Assembly (NCBI RefSeq): GCF_053078305.1
Contig: NZ_CP166875.1
Origin: a plasmid
Length of the DNA: 64,000 bases
Strand: one strand, 5' to 3'
Within the stretch, counting starts at the first letter, position 1. Each line of letters opens with the position of its first letter. Below the pieces are notes generated by a model. That model made no database searches. It was not told the origin of the DNA and worked only from the letters and a program-made list of their open reading frames with translations. Shown in pieces: positions 13,613 to 36,469 of the stretch. Made by a program: the position numbers and the translations under genes.

Positions 13613-13658
13613 TCCACATCCTTTTTCAGTAATTCAGTCTGTTAGTTAAGGAGACTAT

Positions 13659-15098: not shown

Positions 15099-15156
15099 CA
15101 CACACCGGTACCGATGACATTCTGCCGGCACACATTCAACTTACAGAGGAACAAAA

Positions 15157-16414: not shown

Positions 16415-16483
16415 TCTATTTCCTCATTTCCCAAGAAACATATTAAAAACGGAAAACATTACACATAACCTGGAGGACAAATC

Positions 16484-16576
16484 ATGACTTTAAATTTCCC
16501 TGCCGGGGAAACTACACTATTCTCAGCAAAAAACATCCTGACAGCAATACTCACTCTGCACAACTTACACGCATAG
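16484..16576 (+). CDS. small ORF (30 aa) with strong ribosome-binding site
   Basis: GGAGG 7 nt before ATG 16484; encodes MTLNFPAGETTLFSAKNILTAILTLHNLHA; lies just upstream of traU. Confidence 0.25.
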   Translation: MTLNFPAGETTLFSAKNILTAILTLHNLHA

Positions 16577-16638
16577 CGTTCCCATTTGAATACAGTTGCA
16601 GCCCGCGATTTATTTTGTCTTCCGGAGCCACCTCTGCC

Positions 16639-19683: not shown

Positions 19684-20300
19684 TGTACAGCATACACATC
19701 ACTCCCCGCTGCCGGCGTCCTGCACGGGGACAGGTCTTCCTGAAAACGCTGCGCGTGGACGGTGACAGTTTCAGCTTCACCCTGCCGTCCGCCTGCTTCA
19801 CGCTGCGTCCCTCCCCCAATCCCCGGGTCATTTTCGCCAGTGACAGACGGGCTGACGGGGAAATGAGTGGCGTTCGCCTGGCTCTGCCCGGAGAGACAGG
19901 CACGCTGATAACAACGGCCACCTGGCAGGTCAACGTGCCGGAGCGGCCTCCTTTTGATATACAGCATGTCATTCACTGGCTCCTGCCCTCGCCTCTCACG
20001 GCGCTGATGTCCGACAACACCTGGCTGTGGCCGGATAGCCCCGGCACACCGGCACTGACGGCGGGAGACTGGCCGGTAATGGAAACCGATACCCCGACGC
20101 TGAAACGCGTGAAGCGTCGTACCTTCACGCTCATCGATAACCGCAACCGTCAGGGATGGATCACCCGTCGCTTCCAGTGCTTCCCGCTGGCTCCGCTGCC
20201 GGAATCACACAGTCACCGCGTACCAGACATCCTGTATCCCCTGAAAACGGAGAAAAAAGAATGCAAAGACAACCAGCAACCACACTGCTTGCACTCCTGA
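19683..20300 (+). CDS. hypothetical transfer protein (TraV-position)
   Basis: ATG overlapping the traU stop (TGATG); 205 aa. Confidence 0.4.
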   Translation: MYSIHITPRCRRPARGQVFLKTLRVDGDSFSFTLPSACFTLRPSPNPRVIFASDRRADGEMSGVRLALPGETGTLITTATWQVNVPERPPFDIQHVIHWLLPSPLTALMSDNTWLWPDSPGTPALTAGDWPVMETDTPTLKRVKRRTFTLIDNRNRQGWITRRFQCFPLAPLPESHSHRVPDILYPLKTEKKECKDNQQPHCLHS

Positions 20301-21466
20301 TAGGCTGTACGGTTATCCCGTCCACCCACGCCTATCCTGTGACCGTAGTGGCCAGCCAGCCTGTCACCACACAAATCATGCCGGAGCTGGCCGCCATTCA
20401 GGGCGTGATGGCAGAGATGGTCCGTATGCAGACAGCCACCGGCACAGCCATCAACCAGAGTTCAGAGAAGCTGGCCTCTGTCATCGCACAGGATGGGCAG
20501 GCCACCCGTCAGCAGATGATATTCAGTAATGAAACCCGCCGGCTTGAGGAAGCCCGGAAGAGCTTCAGCGTGCCGGACTCCATCTGCAGTGAATCCGCCT
20601 CCGGAGTTGCAGCTGAAAGTCGCCGTGCAGCAGCGTCTGCGGCTGCACGTCTGAGTCAGGGAGGAGGCGTCAGCAGTAAACCCATCCGTGAACGTCTCTC
20701 CCGGGCAGCAGACTCACCAACCCGCGAGGCATATGACAGTGCAGGCATTCATGCCGGTTACTGCACGGAAGCTGAATATGCCCGCTTTGGCGGAACCGAT
20801 GTCTGCCCTGCCGTGGGCGAGCTGCCGGGCGGAGACAGCCAGGTGCGATCGCTCTATCAGGGTGCAGGCACAGCAGATAGCCCTGCCGCCCTCACCTGGG
20901 ATCAGAAACAGATTGATGCTGCCACGGCTTACATGAAAAACACCGCCAGACCGTCAGCGGGTCGTGCCCCGGGGAAAGGTGAAGTGGGAACACAGACCGG
21001 GCGCACGTATGTGGGCCTGCAGAATGAATACAACGGCATCATCGATGCCGCTTCTCATCCGCAACTGTCACTGATAGCTGACAGCACCCCTAATGAGGCC
21101 ACCCGTGGAGCGCTGACTGAAGCCCTGCAGTCACCATCCGCTGCGGCATATTTTGACCGGACCGCATCATCAGAGGCCCGCACCCGTGGTCACATGAGCC
21201 AGCGGGAGTTTGAGGCCTTTGAAGCCGGCAGACGCTATGCAAACACCGACTGGCAGCAGGATCTGCAGGGCATGGAAGGCGATAACCTTCTCCGTGAACT
21301 GCTGCGCACTACCGCCCTGCTGAACTGGCAGATGAACGACCTGAAAGAGCAGATACGCCAGGGTAATGTTATCGCCGGGCAGCAGCTGGCACTGGCGGCA
21401 CGACAGTATTACGGACAGCGTCTCGGTGAACTGTCACAGGCCATGAGCCAGGGGAGCGTAAGATGA
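20261..21466 (+). CDS. T4SS lipoprotein (TraW-like)
   Basis: SD GGAG before ATG 20261; lipobox LLIGC after signal peptide; 401 aa. Confidence 0.5.
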   Translation: MQRQPATTLLALLIGCTVIPSTHAYPVTVVASQPVTTQIMPELAAIQGVMAEMVRMQTATGTAINQSSEKLASVIAQDGQATRQQMIFSNETRRLEEARKSFSVPDSICSESASGVAAESRRAAASAAARLSQGGGVSSKPIRERLSRAADSPTREAYDSAGIHAGYCTEAEYARFGGTDVCPAVGELPGGDSQVRSLYQGAGTADSPAALTWDQKQIDAATAYMKNTARPSAGRAPGKGEVGTQTGRTYVGLQNEYNGIIDAASHPQLSLIADSTPNEATRGALTEALQSPSAAAYFDRTASSEARTRGHMSQREFEAFEAGRRYANTDWQQDLQGMEGDNLLRELLRTTALLNWQMNDLKEQIRQGNVIAGQQLALAARQYYGQRLGELSQAMSQGSVR

Positions 21467-22032
21467 AAGACGACAACAGCACCGACAAAAAAAAACCGGC
21501 CCCCCGTCTCCGCCGCATCGGTGACATCGGGATAAACCTGTTCGCACCACTGGCAGAAACCCGGTGGATGCTGCGCAGCTGCCACCATATGCTGGGCCAG
21601 CATAAAACGCGCCTGAAGCGCCTCATGCCCGACCGGCAACCGGAGAGTCCGGTCTGTATGACCTGGGAAGAAGCCGTCAGGGCCAGCGGCCTTACGGTCA
21701 ACGAACTGGATCGGCGTCTGCGACGTCGCAGGATGTTCTGGCGGACAGGATTCTGGCTGATGATGATACCGGTACTTCTGCTGTGCGGCATGGCCCTTGC
21801 TGCCACAGCGCTTCCGGCCATCACCCTGATACGTATACTGGCCTGCCTGTTACTGATGAGTGCCATTGCAGCACTGTGTGCCTCAAAAACCCTGATTGTG
21901 TCATACCGCCTCTGGCAACTGAATGAACGGCGGGTCAGCGAGGACGAACAGGGCACCTTCCCCGATTACCTGCAGGCCCGGCACGGCTGGAAACAGGCCA
22001 CATGGCTGGCCATTACCCACCGGCAGTACTGA
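21463..22032 (+). CDS. membrane protein (TraX-position)
   Basis: Coupled start (ATGA); two long hydrophobic segments. Confidence 0.4.
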   Translation: MKDDNSTDKKKPAPRLRRIGDIGINLFAPLAETRWMLRSCHHMLGQHKTRLKRLMPDRQPESPVCMTWEEAVRASGLTVNELDRRLRRRRMFWRTGFWLMMIPVLLLCGMALAATALPAITLIRILACLLLMSAIAALCASKTLIVSYRLWQLNERRVSEDEQGTFPDYLQARHGWKQATWLAITHRQY

Positions 22033-22104
22033 CCGTCCGGTCTGCAATTCCTTTTCCTCATTCCGGAGGCTGATGCCCTGCATCCCTTCGGTTCCGGAGT
22101 TATC

Positions 22105-24270
22105 GTGAAAATCATACCCAGAGCACTGAGTGCGGGTCTGGCGCTGGCTGCCGTACCTGCACAGGCATTCGTCACCTATCAGGACATTGTGAGCGCCGCC
22201 ACCAATCCGGATGACCTGTCGCGCCAGGCACTGGTCACCATTTTTGGCGACGTGGTCACAAATCCCCTGACAGCCAGCAGCAACACCATTATCGGCAACC
22301 TGTTCATGGTGTTTAACGCAATTATCGCCATTATGGGGATAGTCTGGTTCCTGTTTATTGGAATCCGCCATGTTGTCCGCACCGGCCACCAGGGCAATGT
22401 CTTTAACAACGGGCGGGACGTCGTCGGAATGCTCAGTATTGTGAGCGGTTTTATGATGATTGTGCCCACCGCTTCCGGCTGGAGCCTGGCACAACTGGTC
22501 ATGCTCTGGGGCGCATCCATCATGGGCATTGGTTCCGCCAATATCATGGTTCAGACGGCTGCAGAAAACATCGCTGAAGGCTATTCAATGACCGTACAGC
22601 CAGTTCATGTCTCCACCCGCACGGCAGCACGGGGAATACTGGAGATGGCGCTGTGCAAACACGCCATGAATGCAGGCCTCGATGACTTTAACCGTACTGC
22701 CCGTTCATCAACGCCCCCCATGAGCGAATCCTCACGGACAGAGAACGGCAGGTATACCATCACCGTTTCAAATGGCAGTGCCACCTGCGGTAGTGTGAGT
22801 CTCTCCGTAAAAGGGAATGGCAGCAACAACCAGTCCGCACTGGACTATTTTTTCAATCCCTTCATTGAAACGGAGTATCAGGGTGTCCTGACGGCACAAC
22901 GCTCCGCCATGGATACCATGCTCCGTGACCTGGACAGCGCAGCACAGGAATTTGTGTCAGCGTACCGGACCCGACGCGACACGGGTAACGGCAACCTGCC
23001 GGATATTGAAAGCCGTATTCAGAAGGCTGCCAACAGGTATGAAGAAACGGTGCAGAAGGCGTTGCCAACAGATAACGCAGAAACTGAGCGCAGGGAGCAG
23101 CTGAAATCCTACCTGACCACCTACGGCTGGGTTGCCCTGGGGGCCTGGTACCAGACCTTTGCCACTGCCAACCAGCGACTGGCAGAACTGGCCGACCGTG
23201 CCCCCACTGTGAGTGGAGTTTCATCGCAGGGCGAAGCAGGGGATACTGAATTCCTGAAGGAAGTAAAAGGAGCTTACCAGGCACAGTTGCAAAACTCACC
23301 ATATACACCTGCACTGGGAACAGCCACCTCCGCCAGTGAATACCAGGCATCTAATACACAGAATCCTCAATCAGCCCTGTTAGAGTTCATAGGGCCAGGG
23401 TTAACTCGATTTTCAAATAAAGTAGCAACCATACATTCAGGAACAGGAACAACGAGTCAGCAGGCAAATCCTCTGCTGAAAATGAAGGACATTGGTGATT
23501 ACACCATGGTCACAACCGAAACCATCTGGGCGGGTTATACCACTGTCAGGGTGCTTTCAACTGCCGGCAGCAACTCCGTTTTTGGCCGACTGGTCAATGC
23601 CGTCAGCGGCTTATCTGATGCCGCAAAGGCTTTTCTGGAAGCCTCCGCACCACCACTCTACTTCCTGCTGTTTTTGCTGTTCTGTGCCGGTTTTTCGTTG
23701 TCCATTTACCTGCCGTTTATCCCGTTTATCTTCTGGATGACCGGCATCGGCAACTGGATAGTCAGCGTACTGATTGGATGCGCCGCCGGCCCCCTGTGGG
23801 CCGCAACCCACCTGGGAACAAGTCAGGACAGAGGAAGTCGGGCCGCTTACGGTTACATCTACCTGATAGACAGCATGATCAGGCCTCTGTTGATGGTGTT
23901 CGGGTTCTTTTTTGCATCGGTCGCCATCGTGGCTGGCGGCACCATACTGAATGCTCTGTACGCTGCAGCACTAATGAATGTCCAGATAAATTCTGTGACG
24001 GGCGTGTTCAGCATGGCGGGATTTTTGATGATTTATGCCCGCGCCTGTACCACACTGGTTGCGGGCGTTTTTGCACTTCAGGCTTATCTGCCAGACCATG
24101 TGATTAATTTTCTGGGCGGACGTGATGGCGTTAATATGCTGGGGAATATGGTTTCTTCCGTCAAAGATATTATTGCCGGCGGAAACACCAATATACGCAG
24201 AACACCTGGCGTTCGTGAAGATAAACTGAAAAATATTAATAGAGATGATAAGGACGGAATAAAACAATAG
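22105..24270 (+). CDS. traY: large polytopic membrane protein, DotA-like (TraY-like)
   Basis: GTG start after GGAG; signal peptide; multiple TM clusters at both ends; 721 aa at the distal end of the tra operon. Confidence 0.6.
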   Translation: MKIIPRALSAGLALAAVPAQAFVTYQDIVSAATNPDDLSRQALVTIFGDVVTNPLTASSNTIIGNLFMVFNAIIAIMGIVWFLFIGIRHVVRTGHQGNVFNNGRDVVGMLSIVSGFMMIVPTASGWSLAQLVMLWGASIMGIGSANIMVQTAAENIAEGYSMTVQPVHVSTRTAARGILEMALCKHAMNAGLDDFNRTARSSTPPMSESSRTENGRYTITVSNGSATCGSVSLSVKGNGSNNQSALDYFFNPFIETEYQGVLTAQRSAMDTMLRDLDSAAQEFVSAYRTRRDTGNGNLPDIESRIQKAANRYEETVQKALPTDNAETERREQLKSYLTTYGWVALGAWYQTFATANQRLAELADRAPTVSGVSSQGEAGDTEFLKEVKGAYQAQLQNSPYTPALGTATSASEYQASNTQNPQSALLEFIGPGLTRFSNKVATIHSGTGTTSQQANPLLKMKDIGDYTMVTTETIWAGYTTVRVLSTAGSNSVFGRLVNAVSGLSDAAKAFLEASAPPLYFLLFLLFCAGFSLSIYLPFIPFIFWMTGIGNWIVSVLIGCAAGPLWAATHLGTSQDRGSRAAYGYIYLIDSMIRPLLMVFGFFFASVAIVAGGTILNALYAAALMNVQINSVTGVFSMAGFLMIYARACTTLVAGVFALQAYLPDHVINFLGGRDGVNMLGNMVSSVKDIIAGGNTNIRRTPGVREDKLKNINRDDKDGIKQ

Positions 24271-24340
24271 AGTACAAAACAGTATTGCCATATTCACCTG
24301 AAGAGTTTAAAATATATTCAGGTGAATATGGAGGTTTATT

Positions 24341-24991
24341 ATGAACAAAACGAAAAGCAGATATCCTTCCTGGTGGGCATATTACCACTTGGCCCGCAAC
24401 GCTTATTTCTTATTAGGAATACCGTGTTTACTTTTATACTCAGCCGCTTATACATCAGATTTATTAGATGATAATCTAAGACATTCAACAAGCCTTTTTA
24501 TTTTGGCATATGGATGTTATTTTCTTCTTTTTATTCCCCCACTCTGGCTATATCTGAGAACTAAGGCAAAGAAAAAGAAAATCCTACAGGTTGTTAAGAA
24601 GATAAAAGAAAGCAGTCCCTTTGCGCCGACCAGCGATTACGAGCAACTGTCATTCTCGAAGAGTTGCTATTTCGGGATCGACATTAAAAACGGCACCATG
24701 CTGTATGTGCGCATTTACCCAAACAATGTCATGGATGTGATTGGTCTGGATATTCACAACTTCACCCGAACAGTTGCTGAAGACGGCAAGCTGGAAATCC
24801 ACACCACCTATGTGAGTCTGCCGATGATCCCTCTTGAAATCTCCGGCATCTCAGCAAGGACGCTGGCCAACACCATGCACACCATGGCTGCACGTGGATA
24901 TGAGTACAAGGAACGTTTCCCACAGATGATCCGGTATCGGGTTAAAGAGTGGGAAAAAGTTGCCGGTGTTCCTGTTGCAGAAGTATTTTGA
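24341..24991 (+). CDS. inner-membrane protein, candidate entry-exclusion protein (ExcA-like by position)
   Basis: GGAGG before ATG; AT-rich; two N-terminal TM helices; immediately follows the traY-like gene. Confidence 0.4.
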   Translation: MNKTKSRYPSWWAYYHLARNAYFLLGIPCLLLYSAAYTSDLLDDNLRHSTSLFILAYGCYFLLFIPPLWLYLRTKAKKKKILQVVKKIKESSPFAPTSDYEQLSFSKSCYFGIDIKNGTMLYVRIYPNNVMDVIGLDIHNFTRTVAEDGKLEIHTTYVSLPMIPLEISGISARTLANTMHTMAARGYEYKERFPQMIRYRVKEWEKVAGVPVAEVF

Positions 24992-25023
24992 GGTAGCTAT
25001 CAACTGTTAGACGATAATCCGTC

Positions 25024-25055
25024 AGCCGGTTTTCTCTGAACCGGCTTTTTCTTTT
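25024..25055 (+). terminator. intrinsic terminator after the tra/exc operon
   Basis: Inverted repeat AGCCGGTT / AACCGGCT followed by a T-run. Confidence 0.5.
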
Positions 25056-25264
25056 CAGGCAGAATGCCTGTCTGCCGTCTATCTCAGGACGCCGCATGGA
25101 GTCTCTATGTTTTCCCCACAAATTCTTAGCACTGTCTTGCCCACTGTAGACAAAATCAATACAATTCTGCATATCAGTTATCTATAAAAGATAACAATAT
25201 CATTATAAATAATTATCATATCCACACACTCAAGGCAGTACCTAGAAAACATAAAGATAAAATC

Positions 25265-26848
25265 ATGTCTACCCGCAGCAATTTTCCAGCACGACATGGT
25301 ACTCCATGGAATACTGAAGAGTTACAGCGTCTTCTCGTATCCATAGCGGAGGGCGTCTCGCTAAAAAAACTTACTCAAACACATCAACGATCGTCCGGGG
25401 GAATACGTGGAGCAATCAAACGCCTGCTTCCTTCTGAGTTTCTTGAGTTCAACGATATAAACACGGTGAATGATCTCAGCAATTACTTCAACAAGATTCC
25501 TCGCCAAGAACACAATAGTATCATCAATAATTTAATATCATTGAGCACTGCAAAAACAATTGCTCATGATAAAGTTGAAATACAAAAGAATAGTTTTAAA
25601 CAAAATACCCCACTCCCCCTCTGCCAACCCAATACAGATTTTAAAGATTATATAGCCGATGAACATGATGTCATTATGCTAATTCATTCTGCTATCGAAA
25701 GTTTATCTAATAAACGACATCAATATATTCTTCTAATGCGACTCGGCACAGATGATTCACCTCATTCTCTGGCAGATATTGCCGTCAAATTAGGAATTTC
25801 CCGTGAAAGGGTAAGACAACTTCAGGAACGAGCCCTTGGCTTACTAGCTGCTAAATCTCGCTATGAAGGGACACCTGGAGCTTGCCTTAAAGCCCTTATT
25901 AACTCAATAGGTAATTCACCATATGATATAGCAGTATGGATTTATCGTATTGTTCATCGGGATTTCGTTACATCCTCTGACTTAGCCGCCAAATTCATTA
26001 TTTTTACCGCAGGCATTCCTAAAGCAAGACGAGATGAAATAAAAAGTTCGCTCTCATTAATATCACAATTACAAAAGCAGAGGTTACGTGAACGAAGAGC
26101 AGAATTAGCACACGCTCGCGCTCAGGAAAGAGCCCGAATCAAGAAAGAAAGAGTTGAGTTCATATTCAGTAAATGGCTAGACAATACACATTGGCCAAAA
26201 TATATCGCACCTCCTCCCCCCGTAGAACAGCTATGTTCACAGAGAGCGGTTAATGATACTGACATATCTGGATTCTTTTACTCTCAAAAATTAGGTCGTA
26301 CAGTCCAGTACGAATCAGGGCTTGAGTTTAAAATAATGAATCTATTAGAATGTTGCGATCAGGTTCTTTTCTATCAAGAACAACCATTTTCTATTCCATA
26401 TTGTTTTAAAAACAAATCAAAAAAATACTATCCAGATTTACTCATTGCGACAGTTGATGGTCGGTGCCTACTTATGGAAGTGAAGCCAACAGACCGAATG
26501 ACCTTGAGTCTCACGAGAATAAAAAGTAATGCAGGTCGCAAATGGGCACATACTCGAGGATGGGGATGGTTGGTCATTAGTGATAGGTTCTCGTTACGTC
26601 AGCTGGAAGAACATGCCATCTCAACAAACACATGGAAACTTATAGAGGCTGAACTGAAAACATCAAGGATTTTAGCATGGCGTGAAATGATGGAGTTACG
26701 TACACGATACGAGATTCATCGTTTAGATCTTATTGCATATATCATTCAGTCTGGTGCTGAAGTGGATAACTTTTATCGAATTACCCCGAAAATATCTAAT
26801 AATACATCTAACCAGAGACAACTAAATGAGAGCGACTGTCATAATTGA
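25265..26848 (+). CDS. fusion protein: sigma-70 region-4-like HTH and C-terminal TnsA-like PD-(D/E)xK endonuclease domain
   Basis: Strongly AT-rich 527-aa ORF; HTH segment SLADIAVKLGISRERVRQLQERALGLL; C-terminal YESGLEF...YYPDLLIATVDGRCLLMEVK resembles the TnsA/restriction-endonuclease fold. Confidence 0.5.
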   Translation: MSTRSNFPARHGTPWNTEELQRLLVSIAEGVSLKKLTQTHQRSSGGIRGAIKRLLPSEFLEFNDINTVNDLSNYFNKIPRQEHNSIINNLISLSTAKTIAHDKVEIQKNSFKQNTPLPLCQPNTDFKDYIADEHDVIMLIHSAIESLSNKRHQYILLMRLGTDDSPHSLADIAVKLGISRERVRQLQERALGLLAAKSRYEGTPGACLKALINSIGNSPYDIAVWIYRIVHRDFVTSSDLAAKFIIFTAGIPKARRDEIKSSLSLISQLQKQRLRERRAELAHARAQERARIKKERVEFIFSKWLDNTHWPKYIAPPPPVEQLCSQRAVNDTDISGFFYSQKLGRTVQYESGLEFKIMNLLECCDQVLFYQEQPFSIPYCFKNKSKKYYPDLLIATVDGRCLLMEVKPTDRMTLSLTRIKSNAGRKWAHTRGWGWLVISDRFSLRQLEEHAISTNTWKLIEAELKTSRILAWREMMELRTRYEIHRLDLIAYIIQSGAEVDNFYRITPKISNNTSNQRQLNESDCHN

Positions 26849-27467
26849 TGACGCACAGGACGGAAAAAATAATAGCTGCCGGACAGCAGCAACCAGCAGT
26901 CGTCCGGTAAAAAAGACAAACAAGGCGCATTGAGGTCAGCCTTCGCAACAATCCGGCGGCAGATTCTCTACCGCCGTGTTGCCCGTTAACGTTTAACTTC
27001 GTAGGCTAACGTTGCCACAAGCACCGTATTTCCCTGCTCGATACGAAATCCGCAAAGCGAATCCCTCACCATCCAGACAAAACACAGTATCGTCACACAG
27101 ACGACGATTAACATCATTAAAAACGTTCGTTGTGGCATCGCAGCCCCTCCATTGCCTTTCGGCCGTCATCGGGCTACTATAATGTTGTTGAGGCATTACA
27201 GTGGGCCCTGGGTTGATTGATAAAAAAATCGCCTGGGGCTTTCTGCTACATGCCGTCCACAAAACGCTTTCGGCATACAGCCTCAAGCGCCCGCCGCTAT
27301 TCTAATCGTTTTCCAGTCCGCCACAATCCTTTTCATGCCACCACGTATTTTGTGTCAGGGACAGAAATAAAGCCGGAAAGTGACTACGTGTGCACACATC
27401 TGTTTTCCGGGCTGCAGGCATCGTGTTATTTTCTGAAATGCAAAATAATAAAAAACAAGGACACATC

Positions 27468-27710
27468 ATGAAGGATGAAATACACAGTACCAGCATTAAC
27501 CCGGATGTTGTTGAGCAGTTTCTGGCCCTTATGAACACACATTGTAAATCCTCAGAAGAGGCACTCGCCATGCTGAGTACGCTTTGTTACAACCTGATGA
27601 TGACATGCGGTATCCATTCCATGGACAGCCAGATGCTCAATGGGCATGGGATATCCATGCAACTTCAGGGGATTGATATTGCCGAAAGGCCAGGCAAGAA
27701 TATTCACTAA
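27468..27710 (+). CDS. hypothetical small protein
   Basis: ATG 27468 preceded by AAGGA; 80 aa. Confidence 0.3.
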   Translation: MKDEIHSTSINPDVVEQFLALMNTHCKSSEEALAMLSTLCYNLMMTCGIHSMDSQMLNGHGISMQLQGIDIAERPGKNIH

Positions 27711-27994
27711 CCTGAACAGGGTCTGAAAACGCTGATTTTTCAGCGTCTCTGCAGGCTAAAACTGATGATGTAATGACAACAAAATTTCTGCGTTTGTACC
27801 CCACCGATGAAAAAGACAAAAACTCACACCGGGCTTCTCATCATTAAAGATAAAACCCGACGTGTCAGCCTCTACGAAACGCCAACGGCATGGTGTATCA
27901 GGGGGCAGGAGTGCTACAGCAAAAGTACAGGACGCCGCTGTGGCAGCCACGACAGTCTGAGCAGACTGCGCCTGGACAGCATTAAGCCTGTTGA

Positions 27995-28378
27995 ATGAGT
28001 GGTGGCACCATGAAAGATAACAACACAACCTCCACCCCAGAAGCCTGGAAAATGCGTTTTCTGGCCAACGGGACATCCGGCACATGGTTTTACACTGACG
28101 ACATTGCAGTCACTGACGCGTGGCTTCGCGCGCACCCGGATGATGTGGAGGTTATCCCTCTCTGCCGGATACAGCCCCGCCAGCATTCCCATGAACAACA
28201 TATTGAAGAACTCCGCGCAGCCCTGGCCCGGATGCTCCATATGCATCATATGATGCTGGAAACCACACATTACCGGGAAAATATCACCGATGCCCGTTGT
28301 ATCCGTGAAATGCATGAAGCGCCATTACAGGCGCTCAATATTCTGTCCAGATACCCGCATAAAAAGGACGAGGTGTGA
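27995..28378 (+). CDS. hypothetical protein (His-rich)
   Basis: 127-aa ORF, first of three tightly linked small ORFs. Confidence 0.3.
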   Translation: MSGGTMKDNNTTSTPEAWKMRFLANGTSGTWFYTDDIAVTDAWLRAHPDDVEVIPLCRIQPRQHSHEQHIEELRAALARMLHMHHMMLETTHYRENITDARCIREMHEAPLQALNILSRYPHKKDEV

Positions 28379-28381
28379 CGC

Positions 28382-28597
28382 ATGTGGCTACTGATTTTCT
28401 GGCTTTCATCGCCCTTTAATGTCTCTTCCGGTGATGCCCGTCAGCCCACACTGGCGGTGCACAGCCAGGCCTTTCATACCGAACGGGCCTGCCGCGATGC
28501 ATTGCGCGCCATTAAAAAGGAGAATGTTGGCGAATTTTCTCTGCGGGGCGTTTGTGTTTCTGACGGAAATACGAAGGAGGAGGCTGAGAGCTCATGA
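28382..28597 (+). CDS. hypothetical small protein
   Basis: 71-aa ORF starting 4 nt after the previous stop; N-terminal hydrophobic segment. Confidence 0.25.
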   Translation: MWLLIFWLSSPFNVSSGDARQPTLAVHSQAFHTERACRDALRAIKKENVGEFSLRGVCVSDGNTKEEAESS

Positions 28598-28845
28598 CGG
28601 ATATTACTGACAGACATACACTTCGCCGTATGTCCTGGTCGGAACTCATCACGGCAGGACAGGAAGCAGAATTTCAGCATGATTACGAGCGTGCCAGAAT
28701 AGTGTGGTCATTCGCCTTACATGTTGCAACAACCACGATTAACAAAAATCTGGCCATAGCTCATATTCGACGCTGCGATACTTTGTTGCATAAATCAAAG
28801 GCTGTACCCGGAAACAACCCGTGTGGTTCCGGTCAGCGAGTCTGA
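28594..28845 (+). CDS. hypothetical small helical protein
   Basis: 83-aa ORF overlapping the previous stop; predicted helical. Confidence 0.3.
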   Translation: MTDITDRHTLRRMSWSELITAGQEAEFQHDYERARIVWSFALHVATTTINKNLAIAHIRRCDTLLHKSKAVPGNNPCGSGQRV

Positions 28846-29475
28846 GACCTCAACATCCCGGGTGATGATTGTCATTCCGGACTGACGCAGCCGCTGCACA
28901 TCTGCGGCAATACGTTGAATACCAAGCCAGAACAGACCATCCAGCGCGGTGACAATTAACCCGCTTTCCAGCGCCAGTTTCAGCCGTGCTGTCGGGGCTT
29001 TAACCTGCCCGGCTATATCAGTGAAACAACGCGTCGTCATGCCATAGCTGTCCGCCCGCCGTATTCGCGTCGCAAGACTGTAACTGAAGCTATCCGGCAC
29101 GCCGGATAAGTCATTCTGCAGACTGTATACACATCCCCGCTGCCGCTCATTGAATACAACTTTTTTCTGGCTGAGCTGCCATTCCCGCCGCACGCTGTCA
29201 ATCATCTGCGGTGTCCGGGTTAACAGCAGACGAAACGGCAGTTCAAAACTGGTCACATAATCAACATTAAGTAAGGCAATCCGCAGCCGCTCCCTGGCTC
29301 CTGCTCCGGTATCACGGCATTCACGCATGACATCTTCCCACTGGCGCATCAGTCGCGGTGACTCATTCCTGGCCCTGAACTGATATTTCTCAATCTGATA
29401 ATCAATATGTTCCTGCATACCGTCACCGGATATCTGTTGCCGTATCATCACGGATATCAGCGTACTGGAATTCAT
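28795..29475 (-). CDS. hypothetical protein with putative C-terminal DNA-binding region
   Basis: 226-aa minus-strand ORF convergent with the small-ORF cluster; C-terminus LDGLFWLGIQRIAADVQRLRQSGMTIITRD looks HTH-like. Confidence 0.35.
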   Translation of the reverse strand: MNSSTLISVMIRQQISGDGMQEHIDYQIEKYQFRARNESPRLMRQWEDVMRECRDTGAGARERLRIALLNVDYVTSFELPFRLLLTRTPQMIDSVRREWQLSQKKVVFNERQRGCVYSLQNDLSGVPDSFSYSLATRIRRADSYGMTTRCFTDIAGQVKAPTARLKLALESGLIVTALDGLFWLGIQRIAADVQRLRQSGMTIITRDVEVSDSLTGTTRVVSGYSL

Positions 29476-29577
29476 GCCCTGCGTGAAGTATCACACTGCC
29501 AAAAAAAACACACCTGAACGTTATTATTTCGCAATATTAATTGCACCTGTTTTCATAAATAAAAAGGAGACGATGAA

Positions 29578-30045
29578 ATGATAAAATATATCTTTTCACT
29601 CACCATTATTTTTTCCGCTTCTCTCTGTGCTGCACAGATTCAGGGGCACGTCATCCGCGTTCTTGATGGTGATACGCTGGAAATATTACAGGACAAAAAG
29701 CCTGTCAGGGTCCGTCTGGCTAATATTGATGCACCGGAAAAGAAACAGCCCTTTGGACGCTGGTCAGCCACTCAGCTGAAGGACCTGGTGGCCGGAAAGC
29801 CCGTAACCGTGCAATACGCGCAGACAGACAGGTATGGCCGTATTCTCGGCCGGGTCTATACCGCTGACGGCACAGAAGCAAATCGCTGGCAGGTCCGTAA
29901 CGGCGCTGCCTGGGTGTACCCGGACTACAATAATGACTATACTCTCCCGCCGCTCCAGCGTGATGCCCGCGCCCTGAAGCGGGGATTATGGGCAGATAAA
30001 AATCCGGTACCACCATGGACCTGGAGAAAACAGAATAAGAAATAA
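29578..30045 (+). CDS. nuc: secreted thermonuclease (staphylococcal nuclease/SNase family)
   Basis: SD AAGGAGA; signal peptide; SNase motifs VIRVLDGDT, RVRLANIDAPE, DRYGRILGRVY. Confidence 0.75.
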   Translation: MIKYIFSLTIIFSASLCAAQIQGHVIRVLDGDTLEILQDKKPVRVRLANIDAPEKKQPFGRWSATQLKDLVAGKPVTVQYAQTDRYGRILGRVYTADGTEANRWQVRNGAAWVYPDYNNDYTLPPLQRDARALKRGLWADKNPVPPWTWRKQNKK

Positions 30046-30385
30046 TTATTTGCTGATATGAAGAAAAAAACCATTTCAAAGAAAATAAATGGCAAAAATA
30101 CAGCATGGAAAAAAATTGCCATTTTTACCGCCGCGTTATTTTTAATATTTGCTGTCTGCTGGTCGTAATAAGCAGAATAACAGAAAGGTGTAAAAATGAA
30201 CCTGGTTGATGCATTTGTCACTAAAGTGATATCCGGACCGTATGAAGAATACGGAAAATGGTGGGTGGATGTAGAATATATTTCCTGGGGAGTTCCGGGT
30301 AAAAGCCGGCTCATGTTTGACTCACGGGAACAGGCACAGGAAGTGCAGGAAGGTTTTCGATTTTTAACCTGAGCATATTTTGTTA

Positions 30386-30415
30386 AAGGGCAGAAGGCGG
30401 TGACCCTCTGCCCTT
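30386..30415. terminator. hairpin after toxin copy 1 (bidirectional)
   Basis: Perfect 9-bp inverted repeat AAGGGCAGA ... TCTGCCCTT. Confidence 0.4.
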
Positions 30416-30434
30416 AAGTACGTTTCCGGGATTA

Positions 30435-30530
30435 TCAGTCAACCAGTTCCCGGATCAGTTCCAGGAGAGCTATCACTGCGTTAGCCACAGCAACAACCGC
30501 CCTGAGAACGATGATTAACAGGTTAATCAT
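30435..30530 (-). CDS. DinQ/TisB-like small hydrophobic toxin peptide, copy 1 (31 aa)
   Basis: Encodes MINLLIIVLRAVVAVANAVIALLELIRELVD; GGAG 8 nt before ATG; the IALLELIR core matches DinQ as I recall it. Confidence 0.4.
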   Translation of the reverse strand: MINLLIIVLRAVVAVANAVIALLELIRELVD

Positions 30531-30845
30531 CCGCTTCTCCATCAATGGAGAAAGAACACCGTGGTTTGCCCTTACATTGCCTGTCGCCACGTTTTCTATA
30601 GTGTCAGTTATAGACAGTTCTTCTCCGGCCAGAGCACCAAAACCAGCACCACCTGATGTTTTGGCCAGGACTTGCAACCTGTTCATCCCGGTGAACGATA
30701 TGCCGGAAAGAACGTGCCTCAAAGCTGACACACCGAGTATATACTTATACTGTGCTTGCAGAAATATTATTTCAGCCGTATTATTTCATAGTCAGTTATA
30801 GGCAGTTATCTTCCGGTCAGGGCTACCAACTTCGATCCGGAATCG

Positions 30846-30876
30846 CAAAAAAACCGGCCTCACCAGTCGGTTTTTT
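30846..30876 (+). terminator. A-tract / hairpin / T-tract terminator, possible 3' end of an antisense sRNA
   Basis: AAAAAAACCG-loop-CGGTTTTTTT; sits at the far end of the toxin leader. Confidence 0.4.
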
Positions 30877-31077
30877 TGCGTCTGTACCTCCTCCCCGGAC
30901 AGCAGTTCTCTCACTCCCGTTGAATATTTCCTGTTGAATTTTACGAAAATACGGCAAATGGGAGATATCGAATATATTTCCTTGGGTGTAGTCGGTAAAA
31001 ACCAGCTCATGTTTGACTCACAGAAACAGGCTCTGGAAGTACAGAAAGTAATCTGTCCGTAGATTATTAAAGGGCAG

Positions 31078-31107
31078 AGGGCGGTGACCCTCTGCCCTTA
31101 AGTACGT
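31078..31107. terminator. hairpin after toxin copy 2
   Basis: Same 9-bp inverted repeat as at 30386. Confidence 0.4.
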
Positions 31108-31118
31108 TTCCGGGATTA

Positions 31119-31214
31119 TCAGTCAACCAGTTCCCGGATCAGTTCCAGGAGAGCTATCACTGCGTTAGCCACAGCAACAACCGCCCTGAGAACGATGATT
31201 AACAGGTTAATCAT
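31119..31214 (-). CDS. DinQ/TisB-like small hydrophobic toxin peptide, copy 2
   Basis: Identical 31-aa peptide and GGAG site to copy 1. Confidence 0.4.
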   Translation of the reverse strand: MINLLIIVLRAVVAVANAVIALLELIRELVD

Positions 31215-31575
31215 CCGTTTCTCCATCAATGGAGGAAATCACTGTTGTTTACTCTTACATTGCCTGTCACAACAGCTCTTTCATTGTTAGCTGAAAAGAG
31301 ACTTCCTCCGGCCAGAGCACCAGACGCAGCACCACCTGTTTGTCCGGCCAGGTCTTTGAATAGCACAGATCCATAGTCCCGATGGATTGATGCGAAGGTA
31401 AGTCTCCAGACAAGGCTAACTTGCTGATTATACTTGTTTCAGGCGATATCGCTACTCCCGGAACAATAGACTGTAACGAACAGATTGCGATCAGGTGAAT
31501 ATAACGATATTCTGGTAACGTTAGTTGAAAAGAGACTTCCCCCGGGCCAGAGCCACCCACTCTCCCTGGGATCGC

Positions 31576-31606
31576 AAAAAAGCCGGCCTCACCAGTCGGC
31601 TTTTTT
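31576..31606 (+). terminator. A-tract / hairpin / T-tract terminator (second copy)
   Basis: AAAAAAGCCG-loop-CGGCTTTTTT; same loop sequence as at 30846. Confidence 0.4.
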
Positions 31607-31750
31607 GTGCCTGTCTCTCACCACCTTCTGCTGTTCCTGTGAAAATGCCCTGCTGAATTCAGCCCTGCCCGGTCATTACCGGCGATTGTTCGCATTAATT
31701 CCACTCAGCCTCATCCCGAAATTTATCTATTTATCGATGGAGGAATCCTC

Positions 31751-33067
31751 GTGTCTTACCAACACTCCCCCACAACAGAAGACCCGATGAACATATGGTA
31801 TATCGTTGGCACCATATGTCTGCTCTTTGCGCTTCTCATCTGGCTCTTTTTACCCGACATCGTCTTTGCCACCTGCCTGATCCTGCACACAATGTGGGGG
31901 ATGACTGACTGGGGGCCTTTTCACCATTTTGCCGCCCCCCGTTACAACCTGCTGGCCATCACTGCTAACAACGCGGCAACCATCACTTTCGGCCAGTGGC
32001 TGGATGTTATGTCCCGGACAGTGGGGATCCTCTGGTTGATTCTGCTTCCCATGACATTCGGCTTTCTGTGGATGTGGTTTCACCATCCGGCCCAGCCCCG
32101 TTTTACCCGCAGGCCACTGAATATCCACACACTGCCCCATATTTTTTCAGCTCTGTCACCGGCGATCGCCCCCGTTCTGGCTGATGGAGACAACAACAGA
32201 CTCTTCCACGGACAAAAACGTCCCGAGCGCCGTGTCGCACTAACCCCCGAAGTCTTTGTGGAGCAGAACAACCTTATCCGCAACATGCAGCTCGATGTTG
32301 CGTCCACACGCCAGTGCTTCATGGCGCAACTGGGGCAACCACTGACCAGCTGGAAAGACATGGCCCCACATGAAAAAGCGCTCTTTGCCATCTTTGGCCT
32401 GCAGTTCTTCCTCGGTGACCGGAAAGCAGCGGTAGCCCTGATGAACAACCTCAATCTCTCCTGCAGGCTCAAAAGTAAACGGGACCAGGGGCGTTTCAGC
32501 ACGCCGGTGTATTCACTGGCCAGAAACGCCTTTATCCGGGTCATCAAAACAGAAGGCGCACAACAGTGGCTCAGGCAGCACCGTTACGTTCGCAGCGGTC
32601 TGGTCTGGCTTTACGCACATGATTTGCGCCTGACGCCTCCGAACTGGCTGTGGCTCAAGGGCGTTGACCGGACGCTCTTCTATGCCCTTCACCGGGCAAA
32701 CACCACAAAAGGCTTCATCGAAGGGGCCGGCGTGGTGGCCGTTGCCCGGGCAGAAAATGAAGCCAGCCGTCTCGGCCTCCCCTGCCCGGAACCCTGTGTG
32801 GAAGAGGCCATTGAAGGGCTTCGACGGGACATGCTGGGGCTGGGCCTGATATGGGACGAACCTCAGCCAGATCGCGATCGTAAACGTCAGATCAGGACCC
32901 GCTGGTCACTCACGGATGACGTGATACCCCGCCGCCATGATAACGACGAAGACACTGACACTGGTGAAACCACCGAAACCACCGAAACCACCGAAACCAC
33001 CGAAACCACCGAAACCACCGAAACCACCGAAAAACAGCATCCCGCCGACAAGGAAAAAGAACAATGA
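31751..33067 (+). CDS. T4SS inner-membrane protein, DotM/IcmP-like (TrbA-like)
   Basis: GTG start after GGAGG; N-terminal TM helices; C-terminal ETT tandem repeat; precedes the trbB/trbC-like genes. Confidence 0.5.
   Translation: MSYQHSPTTEDPMNIWYIVGTICLLFALLIWLFLPDIVFATCLILHTMWGMTDWGPFHHFAAPRYNLLAITANNAATITFGQWLDVMSRTVGILWLILLPMTFGFLWMWFHHPAQPRFTRRPLNIHTLPHIFSALSPAIAPVLADGDNNRLFHGQKRPERRVALTPEVFVEQNNLIRNMQLDVASTRQCFMAQLGQPLTSWKDMAPHEKALFAIFGLQFFLGDRKAAVALMNNLNLSCRLKSKRDQGRFSTPVYSLARNAFIRVIKTEGAQQWLRQHRYVRSGLVWLYAHDLRLTPPNWLWLKGVDRTLFYALHRANTTKGFIEGAGVVAVARAENEASRLGLPCPEPCVEEAIEGLRRDMLGLGLIWDEPQPDRDRKRQIRTRWSLTDDVIPRRHDNDEDTDTGETTETTETTETTETTETTETTEKQHPADKEKEQ
32966..33028 (+). repeat. in-frame tandem 9-bp repeat (gaaaccacc, 6-7 copies)
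   Basis: Perfect tandem units encoding (ETT)n at the TrbA-like C-terminus. Confidence 0.85.
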
Positions 33068-34188
33068 CCATCCACTACACTGCAACACTGAATAATAAAC
33101 ACCTGTCCCTGACCGCCCTGTACCCTGACGGTAATCGGGAGGTGATTGCCATCCTGCCGGTAACAGAACTGGGCGCACTGATTAACCGTAATAACAGGCT
33201 GATGCACCTGTCCTTCAGTTCCCCTTTTCGCGAAATAACCGAAACGGTGCTTGTTGATACCGTTGATGCAGAACGTCCCGGACATCACATCGGCAGAATG
33301 CTCTCAGCGATTGATGCCTGCCTGGATGCCGAATATGCCGGAAAAGGAAAACATCCCTCCCGGAAATATGGCTTCTGGCGGACACTGATGTGTGGCTTTA
33401 TCGCCGGAATTGCTCTGCCGGCGACAGTTGCAGGTTACCACTGGATGAAGGCAGAGCCCCCTTCCACGCTGGCTTACCCTAAATCTCAGGAATGGAGAGC
33501 TGAACCAGTAACCGACACAGAGACACCACGCCCACATACGGAACATCATGTTAACAGCATCCCGGCCCGCCCGGCTCCCACACAGCAGGAACCTTCTTCT
33601 GCCCCCGCCCCGACGGCAGTGACGGAAGAACAACACGTTCAGGCCGCTGAGGCCCGCCGTAATCTGGCCACAGTACTTAAACGCAACGCAGACCGGGGGA
33701 TGTTCACCATTAACCTGTCCACTGGTCATGAACGCACGCTGTACGCCTTCCTTGACCCCGCATGCATCAACTGCCGTCTGCTGGAACCCGCGCTTAAGCA
33801 ACTGGCCCGGGAATTCAGCGTGGTGATTTATCCGGTCTCCGTGATTGGCGGGGAGTCCAGTACAAAGCGGACTGCTCCGCTGCTGTGTGAACCGGACTCA
33901 CAAAAACGGGCGACCGGATGGCATCAGCTGTATTCCGCTGACAGTGGTATGGCCCCCACCGGCGATGCACCGGCCGCACAGGATGGACAGTGTCTGACCG
34001 CCGCACGTGCTGCCATCGATGTCAATAACCAGGCTTTCCGCCAGTTCGGTTTTGGCGGAACCCCCTGGGTGTTATCAGATACCGGCTGGCACCTGCCGTC
34101 CGGCATCCTGAAAGACGCCACTTCCGTTCGCCTCTTCCTGAAAGCAACAGATAGCGAGGAGTATCACAATGAGCCAGCACCACGTTAA
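33064..34188 (+). CDS. thioredoxin-fold protein with CxxC motif (TrbB-like)
   Basis: ATGA coupling; CINC motif in LDPACINCRLL; hydrophobic N-terminal segment. Confidence 0.45.
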   Translation: MTIHYTATLNNKHLSLTALYPDGNREVIAILPVTELGALINRNNRLMHLSFSSPFREITETVLVDTVDAERPGHHIGRMLSAIDACLDAEYAGKGKHPSRKYGFWRTLMCGFIAGIALPATVAGYHWMKAEPPSTLAYPKSQEWRAEPVTDTETPRPHTEHHVNSIPARPAPTQQEPSSAPAPTAVTEEQHVQAAEARRNLATVLKRNADRGMFTINLSTGHERTLYAFLDPACINCRLLEPALKQLAREFSVVIYPVSVIGGESSTKRTAPLLCEPDSQKRATGWHQLYSADSGMAPTGDAPAAQDGQCLTAARAAIDVNNQAFRQFGFGGTPWVLSDTGWHLPSGILKDATSVRLFLKATDSEEYHNEPAPR

Positions 34189-36469
34189 TCCTGACCTCAT
34201 ACACCGCACGGCCTGGGGAAACCCGCTGTGGAATGCACTGCATAACCTGAACATCATTGGTCTGTGTCTGGCCGGCAGTATCATTACGGCCCTGATATGG
34301 CCACTGGCCCTTCCTGTCTGTCTGCTGTTCACCCTGGTCACCTCCGTGATATTCACGCTGCAACGCTGGCGATGCCCCCTGCGTATGCCCATGACGCTCA
34401 GCCTTGATGACCCCTCCCAGGACAGAAAGGTCAGGCGAAGCCTCTTCAGCTTCTGGCCCACCCTGTTTCAGTATGAAGCAGATGAAACATCCCCCGCACG
34501 GGGGATTTTTTATGTCGGTTACCGCCGTATCAATGATATCGGTCGTGAGCTCTGGCTGAGCATGGATGACCTCACCCGGCATGTCATGTTTTTTGCCACC
34601 ACCGGTGGCGGTAAAACAGAAACCACCTTTGCCTGGCTGCTCAACCCGCTCTGCTGGGGAAGAGGCTTTACCTTTGTTGACGGAAAGGCACAGAACGATA
34701 CCACGAGGACAATCTGGTATCTCTCCCGACGTTTTGGCAGGGAGGATGATATCGAGGTCATCAACTTCATGAACGGCGGAAAATCCCGCAGCGAAATCAT
34801 TCAGAGTGGCGATAAATCCCGCCCACAGTCAAACACCTGGAACCCGTTCGCATTCAGCACCGAAGCCTTCACCGCCGAAACCATGCAGTCCATGCTGCCC
34901 CAGAACGTTCAGGGCGGTGAATGGCAGTCACGGGCGATAGCCATGAACAAGGCACTGGTCTTTGGCACAAAATTCTGGTGCGTCCGGGAAGGTAAAACCA
35001 TGTCCCTGCAGATGTTACGGGAACATATGACGCTGGAAGGGATGGCAAAACTCTATTGCCGTGGCCTTGATGACCAGTGGCCGGAAGAAGCCATCGCACC
35101 ACTGCGAAACTACCTGCAGGATGTCCCGGGATTCGATATGTCACTGGTGAGAACGCCGTCAGCCTGGACTGAGGAGCCCCGTAAACAGCATGCTTATCTC
35201 TCCGGTCAGTTCTCGGAAACGTTCACAACCTTTGCCGAAACCTTCGGGGACGTCTTTGCGGCAGATGCCGGCGACATCGATATTCGCGACAGTATTCACA
35301 GCGACCGCATTCTGATTGTGATGATCCCTGCACTGGACACATCGGCCCATACCACGTCGGCACTCGGTCGTATGTTCGTCACCCAGCAGAGCATGATCCT
35401 CGCCCGTGACCTGGGCTACCGCCTGGAAGGCACAGATGCACAGACCCTGGAAGTCAAAAAATACAAAGGCAGCTTCCCCTATATCTGTATCCTTGACGAA
35501 GTCGGTGCCTACTACACAGACCGCATTGCTGTGGAGGCCACCCAGGTACGTTCACTGGAGTTTTCCCTGATAATGATGGCGCAGGATCAGGAGCGAATTG
35601 AAGGGCAGACCTCCGCCACCAACACCGCCACACTGATGCAGAACGCCGGCACCAAATTCGCCGGACGCATTGTCAGTGACGACAAAACGGCAAGAACGGT
35701 GAAAAATGCCGCCGGTGAAGAGGCACGGGCCAGAATGGGCAGCCTGCAGCGCCACGATGGTGTGATGGGTGAGTCCTGGGTGGACGGTAACCAGATCACC
35801 ATCCAGATGGAAAGCAAAATCGACGTGCAGGATTTGATCAGACTGAATGCCGGTGAGTTCTTTACCGTTTTCCAGGGGGATGTGGTGCCGTCAGCCTCTG
35901 TGTATATTCCGGACAGCGAGAAAAGTTGCGACAGTGATCCGGTGGTCATCAACCGCTATATTTCCGTTGAAGCCCCCCGGCTGGAGCGTCTCCGCCGTCT
36001 CGTCCCCAGGACAGTGCAGCGCAGGCTCCCCACACCGGAGCATGTCAGCAGCATCATCGGTGTACTGACAGCAAAACCATCCCGTAAACGTCGTAAAAAC
36101 CGTACAGAGCCTTACCGTATCATTGATACATTCCAGCGCCGGTTGGCAACAGCGCAGACATCACTGGATCTGCTTCCGCAATATGATACAGATATCGAAT
36201 CCCGGGCAAACGAACTGTGGAAAAAGGCTGTGCACACTATCAATAACACAACCTGGGAAGAACGCCGGGTATGTTATATCACACTGAATCGTCCGGAAGA
36301 GGAACACTCCGGTCCTGAAGATATACCTTCAGTAAAGGCGATTCTGAATACCCTGCTCCCCCTGGAGATACTGTTACCGGTCGCTGAAAATAATAAATCG
36401 CAGACAATAAATAATGATCATCCCCAGAAATCATGTGGAGCACAACCAACAACTGACGAAAAATACTGA
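34169..36469 (+). CDS. trbC: type IV coupling protein, DotL/IcmO (VirD4-like) family (TrbC-like)
   Basis: N-terminal TM helices; Walker A FFATTGGGKTET; 766 aa; SD GAGGAG. Confidence 0.7.
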   Translation: MSQHHVNPDLIHRTAWGNPLWNALHNLNIIGLCLAGSIITALIWPLALPVCLLFTLVTSVIFTLQRWRCPLRMPMTLSLDDPSQDRKVRRSLFSFWPTLFQYEADETSPARGIFYVGYRRINDIGRELWLSMDDLTRHVMFFATTGGGKTETTFAWLLNPLCWGRGFTFVDGKAQNDTTRTIWYLSRRFGREDDIEVINFMNGGKSRSEIIQSGDKSRPQSNTWNPFAFSTEAFTAETMQSMLPQNVQGGEWQSRAIAMNKALVFGTKFWCVREGKTMSLQMLREHMTLEGMAKLYCRGLDDQWPEEAIAPLRNYLQDVPGFDMSLVRTPSAWTEEPRKQHAYLSGQFSETFTTFAETFGDVFAADAGDIDIRDSIHSDRILIVMIPALDTSAHTTSALGRMFVTQQSMILARDLGYRLEGTDAQTLEVKKYKGSFPYICILDEVGAYYTDRIAVEATQVRSLEFSLIMMAQDQERIEGQTSATNTATLMQNAGTKFAGRIVSDDKTARTVKNAAGEEARARMGSLQRHDGVMGESWVDGNQITIQMESKIDVQDLIRLNAGEFFTVFQGDVVPSASVYIPDSEKSCDSDPVVINRYISVEAPRLERLRRLVPRTVQRRLPTPEHVSSIIGVLTAKPSRKRRKNRTEPYRIIDTFQRRLATAQTSLDLLPQYDTDIESRANELWKKAVHTINNTTWEERRVCYITLNRPEEEHSGPEDIPSVKAILNTLLPLEILLPVAENNKSQTINNDHPQKSCGAQPTTDEKY

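Follow-up and report, generated by a model that had tools for sequence, protein, structure and literature searches.

Lower-GC sequences, probably of three kinds, interrupt the GC-rich transfer backbone of a plasmid related to IncK2/Z

The 64,000-nucleotide stretch of plasmid DNA analysed here (contig NZ_CP166875.1, hereafter the window) carries a transfer region in which the entry exclusion gene excA and the downstream gene trbA are separated by an interval of accessory genes. This interval encodes a 527-amino-acid (527-aa) protein that joins a helix-turn-helix (HTH) to a nuclease domain, type I toxin-antitoxin (TA) loci, a cluster of small open reading frames (ORFs), a winged-HTH protein and a thermonuclease. 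The genes traI-traY, excA, trbABC and nikBA are collinear with those of the IncI1 plasmid R64 at 68-78% DNA identity by blastn (68-74% for the tra genes), and relatives of the plasmid are typed MPF_I and MOBP. Identity to the Escherichia coli plasmid pDW54_2, which is typed IncK2/Z, MOBP and MPF_I, is 99.9% over positions 1-24000 and 100% over positions 24000-32000. A second plasmid, pL2-87, matches as well as pDW54_2 in the parts tested, and the left 36 kb of the window matches both. We conclude that the window belongs to a conjugative plasmid of the I-complex (MPF_I), and that the nearest relatives of this plasmid are typed IncK2/Z.

A preliminary description of this sequence, made by eye, had proposed that AT-rich cargo blocks interrupt a GC-rich transfer backbone (G+C content, GC), and had suggested a check by synteny with IncI1, IncI2, IncK and IncB/O backbones. 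The IncI2 plasmid R721 is typed MPF_T, and its first 50 kb yielded just two short matches (nuc at 65.6% identity and one 313-bp piece), so this comparison is moot because R721 shares essentially nothing with the transfer region of the window.

The mosaic itself is real. Taken as a whole, the window has a GC of 0.522, and its sliding profile spans 0.32-0.63. Penalised maximum-likelihood optimal partitioning of 50-bp bins, used in place of recursive single splits that overlooked internal islands, divides the window into 13 GC segments, compared with one segment in each of 20 shuffled sequences (20/20), and uniform composition is thereby ruled out. The backbone segments 751-15700, 16701-24100 and 31851-36050 (the last carrying trbABC) have GC values of 0.557, 0.571 and 0.564, respectively. 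The four deepest troughs coincide with the blocks that had been picked out by eye: excA with the 527-aa HTH-nuclease gene (24101-26850, GC 0.400), the gap between traT and traU (15701-16700, 0.379), the ParM/StbA and StbB genes (50151-51950, 0.371), and the resolvase and Tn3 transposase genes (54101-58450, 0.359). The segment covering the remainder of the interval (26851-31850) has a GC of 0.487.

Codon usage gives a similar picture. Genes of the tra and trb sets have GC values of 0.53-0.60 and a GC at third codon positions (GC3) of 0.618 +/- 0.050 (n=20), and relative to these 20 genes the GC3 z scores are -2.9 for excA, -6.2 for the 527-aa gene, -7.3 for orf181 in the traT-traU gap, -6.5 for stbA, -7.2 for stbB and -6.2 for tnpA. 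Dinucleotide signatures likewise set the interval apart from the backbone, with delta* values of 88 for 24101-26850 and 64 for 26851-31850, against 95th percentiles of 72 and 45 for backbone pieces of the same sizes. The range 24341-31750, given in the preliminary description, is heterogeneous, with a mean GC of 0.459. Strong AT-richness is confined to 24101-26850; the DNA from 27334 to 30045 has near-backbone values (GC 0.50-0.53, and GC3 z scores of -0.8 to -1.5 in most genes). Nor do the nik genes belong with the GC-rich class to which they had been assigned, since nikB has a GC of 0.51 and nikA a GC of 0.438 (0.423 for nikA of R64).

We also observed that the tra and trb genes of this branch (2646-24270 and 31751-36469) lie 4-11 GC points above their R64 orthologues (0.53-0.60 versus 0.47-0.53, at about 70% DNA identity). 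The E. coli chromosome has a GC of 50.8% (PMC3032704). Because the transfer genes exceed both their R64 orthologues and this chromosomal value, it is the backbone, and not the supposed cargo, that is furthest from host composition.

The interval opens with excA (24341-24991, plus strand), located directly downstream of traY (22105-24270), whose product is the reported target of ExcA. The predicted protein matches the NCBIfam model NF033891 over residues 3-212 with 254.1 bits (cut-off 100), and on this match and this location we assign excA as a predicted IncI1-type entry/surface exclusion gene. A pattern scan and inspection of the sequence identified a terminator-like hairpin followed by a run of T residues immediately 3' of the gene (25024-25056, plus strand). 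Alignment with R64, pCT and other alleles divides excA into a membrane-spanning, allele-specific 5' half (24341-24600) with a GC of 0.354 and a conserved 3' half with a GC of 0.483. The gene is found in every relative, and in R64 its GC is 0.389 versus about 0.50 for the backbone. Because excA is just as AT-rich relative to its neighbours in R64, its low GC is a feature that the lineages have kept and does not point to acquisition. Both excA and nikA are AT-rich core genes in both lineages, not cargo.

Within traY, a hypervariable segment (23250-23500, plus strand) has a GC of 0.45, compared with 0.54-0.56 elsewhere in the gene. This segment is 72-76% identical to its counterparts in pCT, CP057399 and CP082750, versus 91-100% in the surrounding sequence, and is 94% identical in CP088678. 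The last of these plasmids has both the excA allele of the window and a similar traY segment, and divergence at this segment is seen in all three plasmids that carry the alternative excA allele. Thus, across five plasmids the traY segment and the 5' half of excA co-vary, and each is more AT-rich than the conserved parts of its gene, as expected of a matched exclusion-specificity pair. Entry exclusion in IncI plasmids has been assigned to ExcA acting on TraY (PMC11493245, PMC8923210). Passages of the former report, which cite Sakuma et al. (2013), indicate that ExcA recognises segments of TraY, and a joint swap of traY and excA specificity would fit the recognition described in those passages.

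A further remark of the preliminary description was that no excB-like second exclusion gene follows excA, and that cargo occupies its position. The ORF list indeed contains no second exclusion ORF 3' of excA in the window. This absence is not evidence of displacement by cargo, because the RefSeq annotation of R64 also has no separate excB coding sequence (CDS), and its excA is followed by a small reverse-strand ORF. The second exclusion product described for R144 and R64 would be made in frame from within the excA ORF itself. A literature search returned no paper joining excB with exclusion and a plasmid, and one paper that uses 'excAB' without detail. Inspection of excA in the window for an internal ribosome-binding site revealed none that was convincing. 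A separate excB gene is not to be expected, and its absence is no anomaly.

From excA to trbA the window measures 6.8 kb, versus 2.3 kb in R64, and this longer interval is syntenic in the IncK1 plasmid pCT (NC_014477, typed IncI-gamma/K1) and in pO26-Vir. Sliding identity to pCT is 91-95% from traW to traY, drops to 72% in the hypervariable traY segment and to 75-86% in the 5' half of excA, rises to 98-100% over 24750-31750, and becomes variable again inside trbA (31751-33067, plus strand, pDW54_2 annotation), where the GC-rich backbone resumes (GC 0.563). A variable stretch of trbA lies at 32000-32500, which is 91-92% identical to pCT compared with 98-100% on both sides. In a repeat search, neither the 527-aa gene nor the block of small ORFs and nuc proved to be flanked by direct or inverted repeats. 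An interval that is 98-100% identical between plasmids whose tra genes are 91-95% identical, and that lacks flanking repeats, argues for a lineage-conserved module exchanged by homologous recombination rather than for a set of fresh insertions.

The module does vary. Although pCT shares the gene order from excA to trbA (including pCT_065, which is pndACB, and pCT_066), it differs in that an IS21-family insertion separates its HTH gene from nuc, in having one dqlB unit, in its excA 5' half and traY segment, and in lacking the traT-traU insert. An IS3 element has also entered the interval among relatives. In CP057399 (IncK2/Z, 7813-10003), the small-ORF/HTH block is replaced by genes for a lipid A phosphoethanolamine transferase and a DUF2569 protein. 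The transferase gene, which occupies this same slot, is possibly of the colistin-resistance type. We note in addition that an autotransporter gene follows nuc in CP057399, at the place where the window has trbA. The equivalent region of IncI1 plasmids (trbA-excA, or trbA-traY, in R64, ColIb-P9 and pRK1) occupies the same position, shares excA, pnd and a dqlB unit, and is likewise a site of inserts, including ISEcp1-blaCMY-2 adjoining pnd/finQ in one IncI1 plasmid. In contrast to the window, R64 has no 527-aa gene, small-ORF cluster, ECs1377-family HTH gene or SNase gene, and its backbone is about 70% identical. Previous authors have called the trbA-exc region 'a diverse region' (PMC3032704) and 'a very variable region' with the inserts RD1 and RD2 (PMC8004404).

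Beyond the 527-aa gene, to which we return below, the interval contains a putative pnd type I TA locus (26924-27333, minus strand), with a Hok/Gef toxin CDS at 26986-27138 and a sok-type antisense RNA at 27136-27292. As in hok/sok systems, the toxin matches PF01848 (HOK_GEF, 1.3e-12) and the RNA matches the Rfam sok family (RF01794, 124.7 bits versus a gathering score of 59). Identity to the R64 locus is 89.5%, versus about 70% in the flanking backbone; either pnd is under much stronger constraint than the backbone or it was exchanged at a later time. Five small ORFs follow (80, 63, 122, 71 and 83 aa; 27468-28845, plus strand, GC 0.46-0.54), taken from the ORF list and the pDW54_2 annotation; they match no family in Pfam or NCBIfam, apart from one weak ANR-like match under the cut-off. 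Next are a gene for a winged-HTH protein of the ECs1377 family (28795-29475, minus strand, GC 0.53; Pfam HTH_39, and NCBIfam NF052300 with 299.6 bits versus 190) and the SNase-type (thermonuclease) gene nuc (29578-30045, plus strand, GC 0.52; Pfam SNase, 6.5e-22), whose product is of the secreted type, with a hydrophobic N-terminus.

The interval closes with orf58 (58 aa) and a tandem duplication of a dqlB/AgrB type I TA unit (together 30196-31608). The two dqlB copies (30435-30530 and 31119-31214, both on the minus strand) each score 63.7 bits against NCBIfam NF041473 (cut-off 35), and the accompanying AgrB-like RNAs (30792-30879 and 31521-31608, both on the plus strand) score 47.7 and 38.5 bits against Rfam AgrB (gathering score 40). 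Each unit thus pairs a DqlB ORF with an AgrB-type RNA, as in dinQ/agrB-like loci, the RNA of the second copy falling just under the gathering score. The repeated sequences extend over 30268-30673 and 30964-31356 with a period of approximately 684-696 bp, and two units are present in pDW54_2 and pO26-Vir, compared with one in pCT. By these family matches the interval is predicted to carry three type I TA units, namely pnd and the two dqlB/AgrB copies.

Three other low-GC blocks have a different distribution. The traT-traU insertion (15157-16414) contains ORFs of 119 and 127 aa on the plus strand and one of 181 aa on the minus strand, with GC as low as 0.36 and a GC3 of 0.25 for orf181. None of the three ORFs matches a family in Pfam, NCBIfam or PADLOC. 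In R64 traT and traU are 90 bp apart, and the block aligns to neither R64 nor pCT. Among about 450 related plasmids, defined as those with the traT and traU of this branch, 74 carry the block at full length, and several alternative fillings occur. The block is a true insertion.

The second is a partition module (50389-51923, plus strand, GC 0.37-0.38) of the ParMRC/StbAB type, whose ParM/StbA and StbB proteins match the Pfam families StbA_N (1.6e-63), ParM_N (1.5e-42) and Plasmid_stab_B (2.8e-19). Just 10 records of the PLSDB database cover stbAB to at least 80%, compared with more than 5,000 for a 300-bp flank.

The third is a minimal Tn3-family element (54579-58478, GC 0.36), composed of a resolvase gene (54636-55229, minus strand) and a transposase gene (55374-58412, plus strand) with matches to the Pfam families Resolvase, DDE_Tnp_Tn3 and DUF4158. 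Its GGGG-ended inverted repeats are 39 nt long and 85% complementary. In its DDE Tn3 transposase, its serine resolvase and its terminal inverted repeats it resembles other Tn3-family transposons, whose GGGG-ended repeats are approximately 38 bp, but it differs in having no passenger gene and no clean target duplication, and in adjoining an IS66-family element. The sequence TGTAT occurs directly after the right repeat (58479-58483) and at 54570-54574 on the left, where 4 nt separate it from the GGGGG of the left repeat; the two copies would make at best an imperfect 5-bp target duplication. The element is found at full length in 10 PLSDB records, one of them 100% identical and residing in a 34-kb E. 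coli plasmid. Both stbAB and this element are rare cargo. At its right end the element meets accessory genes of the IS66 family (58439-59997, with TnpB at 58722-59069 and TnpA at 59069-59746), and the transposon may have landed in or beside another insertion sequence (IS).

These data establish the composition, the gene content, the synteny, and the presence or absence of each block among relatives. We favour, at a probability of about 80%, a reading in which a GC-rich tra/trb backbone carries three kinds of lower-GC sequence. The first would be core genes whose AT-richness is shared by all lineages, namely excA (chiefly its allele-determining 5' half) and nikA. The second would be a lineage-conserved accessory and maintenance module extending from excA to trbA. 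The third would be truly sporadic cargo, comprising the traT-traU insert, stbAB and the Tn3-family transposon. We infer a mechanism in which the module passes between related backbones by homologous recombination in its conserved flanks (the 3' half of excA, and trbA), not by transposition, and in which the same recombination swaps the co-varying specificity segments of traY and excA. A foreign origin of the genes rich in AT is likewise inferred, as are the functions assigned to the cargo.

Several points weigh against this reading. AT-richness alone is no proof of foreign origin, and none of the blocks was traced to a donor lineage. The dinucleotide signatures of 15701-16700 and 50151-51950, islands of 1-1.8 kb, are matched by backbone pieces of the same size that are equally variable. 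The panel used for detailed alignment was small (R64, pCT, pO26-Vir and five IncK2/Z plasmids), and the frequencies given here are BLAST coverage classes, not a curated phylogeny. The near-identity of the interval could reflect strong purifying selection, yet its intergenic DNA is equally conserved. Finally, in a PLSDB search no single record covered more than 60% of the right-hand 24 kb of the window, which is a different mosaic.

Low GC might instead reflect function rather than origin, such that membrane and specificity segments, TA loci dense in promoters and antisense RNAs, and regulatory DNA are all native to the plasmid. We regard this as possible but on the whole doubtful. It accords with the fact that AT-richness within excA peaks in the variable membrane half and that the GC of traY is lower in the hypervariable segment, with the AT-richness of nikA and excA in both lineages, and with the three type I TA loci of the interval, which have antisense RNAs. 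It leaves unexplained the GC3 values of 0.25-0.31 in long genes for soluble proteins (the 527-aa gene, stbA, tnpA and orf181), as well as the absence of these genes from many relatives.

An unlikely explanation is that each AT-rich block, excA included, is a separate recent insertion into this particular backbone, with excB displaced in the process. The blocks are compositionally distinct, three of them are sporadic among relatives, and resistance genes and IS elements do enter the interval in other plasmids. Against it stand the universality of excA and its AT-richness in R64, an interval with no insertion signatures that keeps its gene order in pCT and pO26-Vir at 98-100% identity, and the lack of a separate excB CDS in R64 that could have been displaced. 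This explanation is largely refuted as regards excA and the entire interval. The repeated acquisition of cargo suggested in the preliminary description is supported for the traT-traU insert, stbAB and the Tn3 element, which are sporadic, and for the 527-aa gene, which R64 lacks; it is not supported for excA, a core gene, or for an interval conserved in pCT and pO26-Vir. A chance fluctuation or by-eye impression is refuted by the segmentation of shuffled sequences, by GC gaps of 0.16-0.21 over 1-4 kb, and by GC3 z scores of -6 to -7.

The mosaic is an ordinary property of the family; the interval had already been described as variable, and mosaic composition is expected in conjugative plasmids. 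The practical value lies in annotation, in that the interval can be marked as an accessory slot, probably exchanged by recombination, into which resistance genes also land in relatives. The analysis corrects two assumptions as well: that AT-rich sequence equals cargo (excA and nikA are not), and that a separate excB should be expected. The sole new lead is the predicted fusion, in the 527-aa protein, of a sigma-region-4 HTH to an apparently intact TnsA-like nuclease.

The gene for this protein (25265-26848, plus strand) has a GC of 0.395 and a GC3 of 0.305, and is preceded by its own AT-rich upstream region. Both published primers for pCT_066, annotated as a 'putative sigma factor', match the gene exactly and define the published 1289-bp amplicon, and the gene is therefore pCT_066. 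Knockout of pCT_066 in pCT left stability, conjugation, growth, biofilm formation and competitive index all unchanged (PMC4083329). The protein consists of an N-terminal helical domain, a sigma-70 region 4 HTH (residues 149-192), a long helix and a TnsA-like PD-(D/E)xK nuclease domain (approximately residues 331-500), with Pfam matches to PF04545 and PF08722 (46.6 bits for the latter versus a cut-off of 26.5). Residues E354, D391, E405 and K407 constitute the PD-(D/E)xK set, and none of the four varies among 30 homologues, the most distant at 25% identity. A confident AlphaFold (AF2) model of the protein has a mean predicted local distance difference test (pLDDT) score of 88.7, and its C-terminal 220 residues are matched by Foldseek to TnsA of Tn7 (1t0f, E 7.7e-5).

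Two established identities do not fit this protein. First, it is not a sigma factor. Searches of Pfam, NCBIfam, PDB sequences and Foldseek found only Sigma70_r4 and no region 2 of the sigma-70 family, and its scores against sigma equivalog models are all far under their cut-offs. Second, the locus lacks the companion parts of a Tn7-like transposon. The C-terminal 220 residues share with Tn7 TnsA both the fold and the E...D...ExK catalytic residues, but the gene stands alone between excA and pnd and is fused to a sigma-region-4 HTH, with no tnsB, tnsC or tnsD nearby and no terminal repeats or other transposon ends.

The family to which the protein belongs is small (53 clusters), has a constant architecture, and is found in Enterobacterales, Xanthomonas and some high-GC bacteria. 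In each of eight contexts inspected, the homologous gene is a lone gene. In Pectobacterium it lies directly after GajA/GajB (892 and 765 bits by PADLOC) and before McrB; in Xanthomonas it is next to Lamassu LmuB and a SIR2 gene; and in Salmonella it is next to BrxA/B/C and PglX. Another homologue is accompanied by ThsB (437 bits), PIN, HNH and NACHT-like genes in an island bounded by an integrase, and a fifth lies in an integrase island 3' of smpB together with DUF4145. The remaining three are located on a Providencia plasmid, on a ParA-carrying contig with mycobacterial-type genes, and on a contig with no defence association, where rpoD/HipA flank it on one side and ordinary genes for signalling and metabolism on the other. 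Thus five of the eight contexts are defence or integrase islands, and four of these include defence genes recognised by PADLOC or by Brx families of Pfam (GajA/GajB, LmuB, BrxABC/PglX and ThsB).

These neighbours and the invariant catalytic residues tentatively suggest that the 527-aa protein might be a single-gene, sequence-targeted TnsA-like nuclease that guards the plasmid host against phages or rival mobile DNA, and that it might represent an undescribed defence family present in about two thirds of the plasmids of the IncK/B/O/Z branch. The link to defence is an association only, drawn from neighbouring genes. PADLOC-DB v2 returned no meaningful match to the protein, its sole hit being SspB at 17 bits (E 5.6e-4), and a literature search found no paper that calls it a defence gene. 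If the HTH-TnsA-like nuclease were a defence or anti-plasmid gene, it would go some way to explaining why epidemic IncK/B/O plasmids such as pCT have been so successful. PLSDB has 286 records in which at least 80% of the gene is covered, nearly always at 99% identity or more, against about 450 plasmids that have the traT and traU of this branch. In some relatives it has been deleted or replaced: CP088678 has an internal 1366-bp deletion, and in CP082750 and CP141250 an R64-like small ORF and a remnant of the 3' end of a second excA replace the gene.

Other observations concern the backbone. In R64, a phospholipase-D-family nuclease gene lies between traK and the sogL-like gene (13431-13982 of the R64 piece). 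The corresponding gap in the window is 63 bp (4901-4965), and the window has an unrelated SNase-type gene in its excA-trbA interval instead. In pCT the traK-sogL slot is occupied by ISEcp1-blaCTX-M-14. According to the pDW54_2 annotation, the leading region of the window carries a gene for an Rpn-family recombination-promoting nuclease (42387-43301, minus strand); Rpn proteins have been described as gene-within-gene toxin-antitoxin systems that act against phages (PMC10327210). Lastly, the C-terminus of TrbA is formed by six 'ETT' triplets in a row (GETTETTETTETTETTETTEKQ), encoded at the 3' end of trbA (window positions about 32990-33050).

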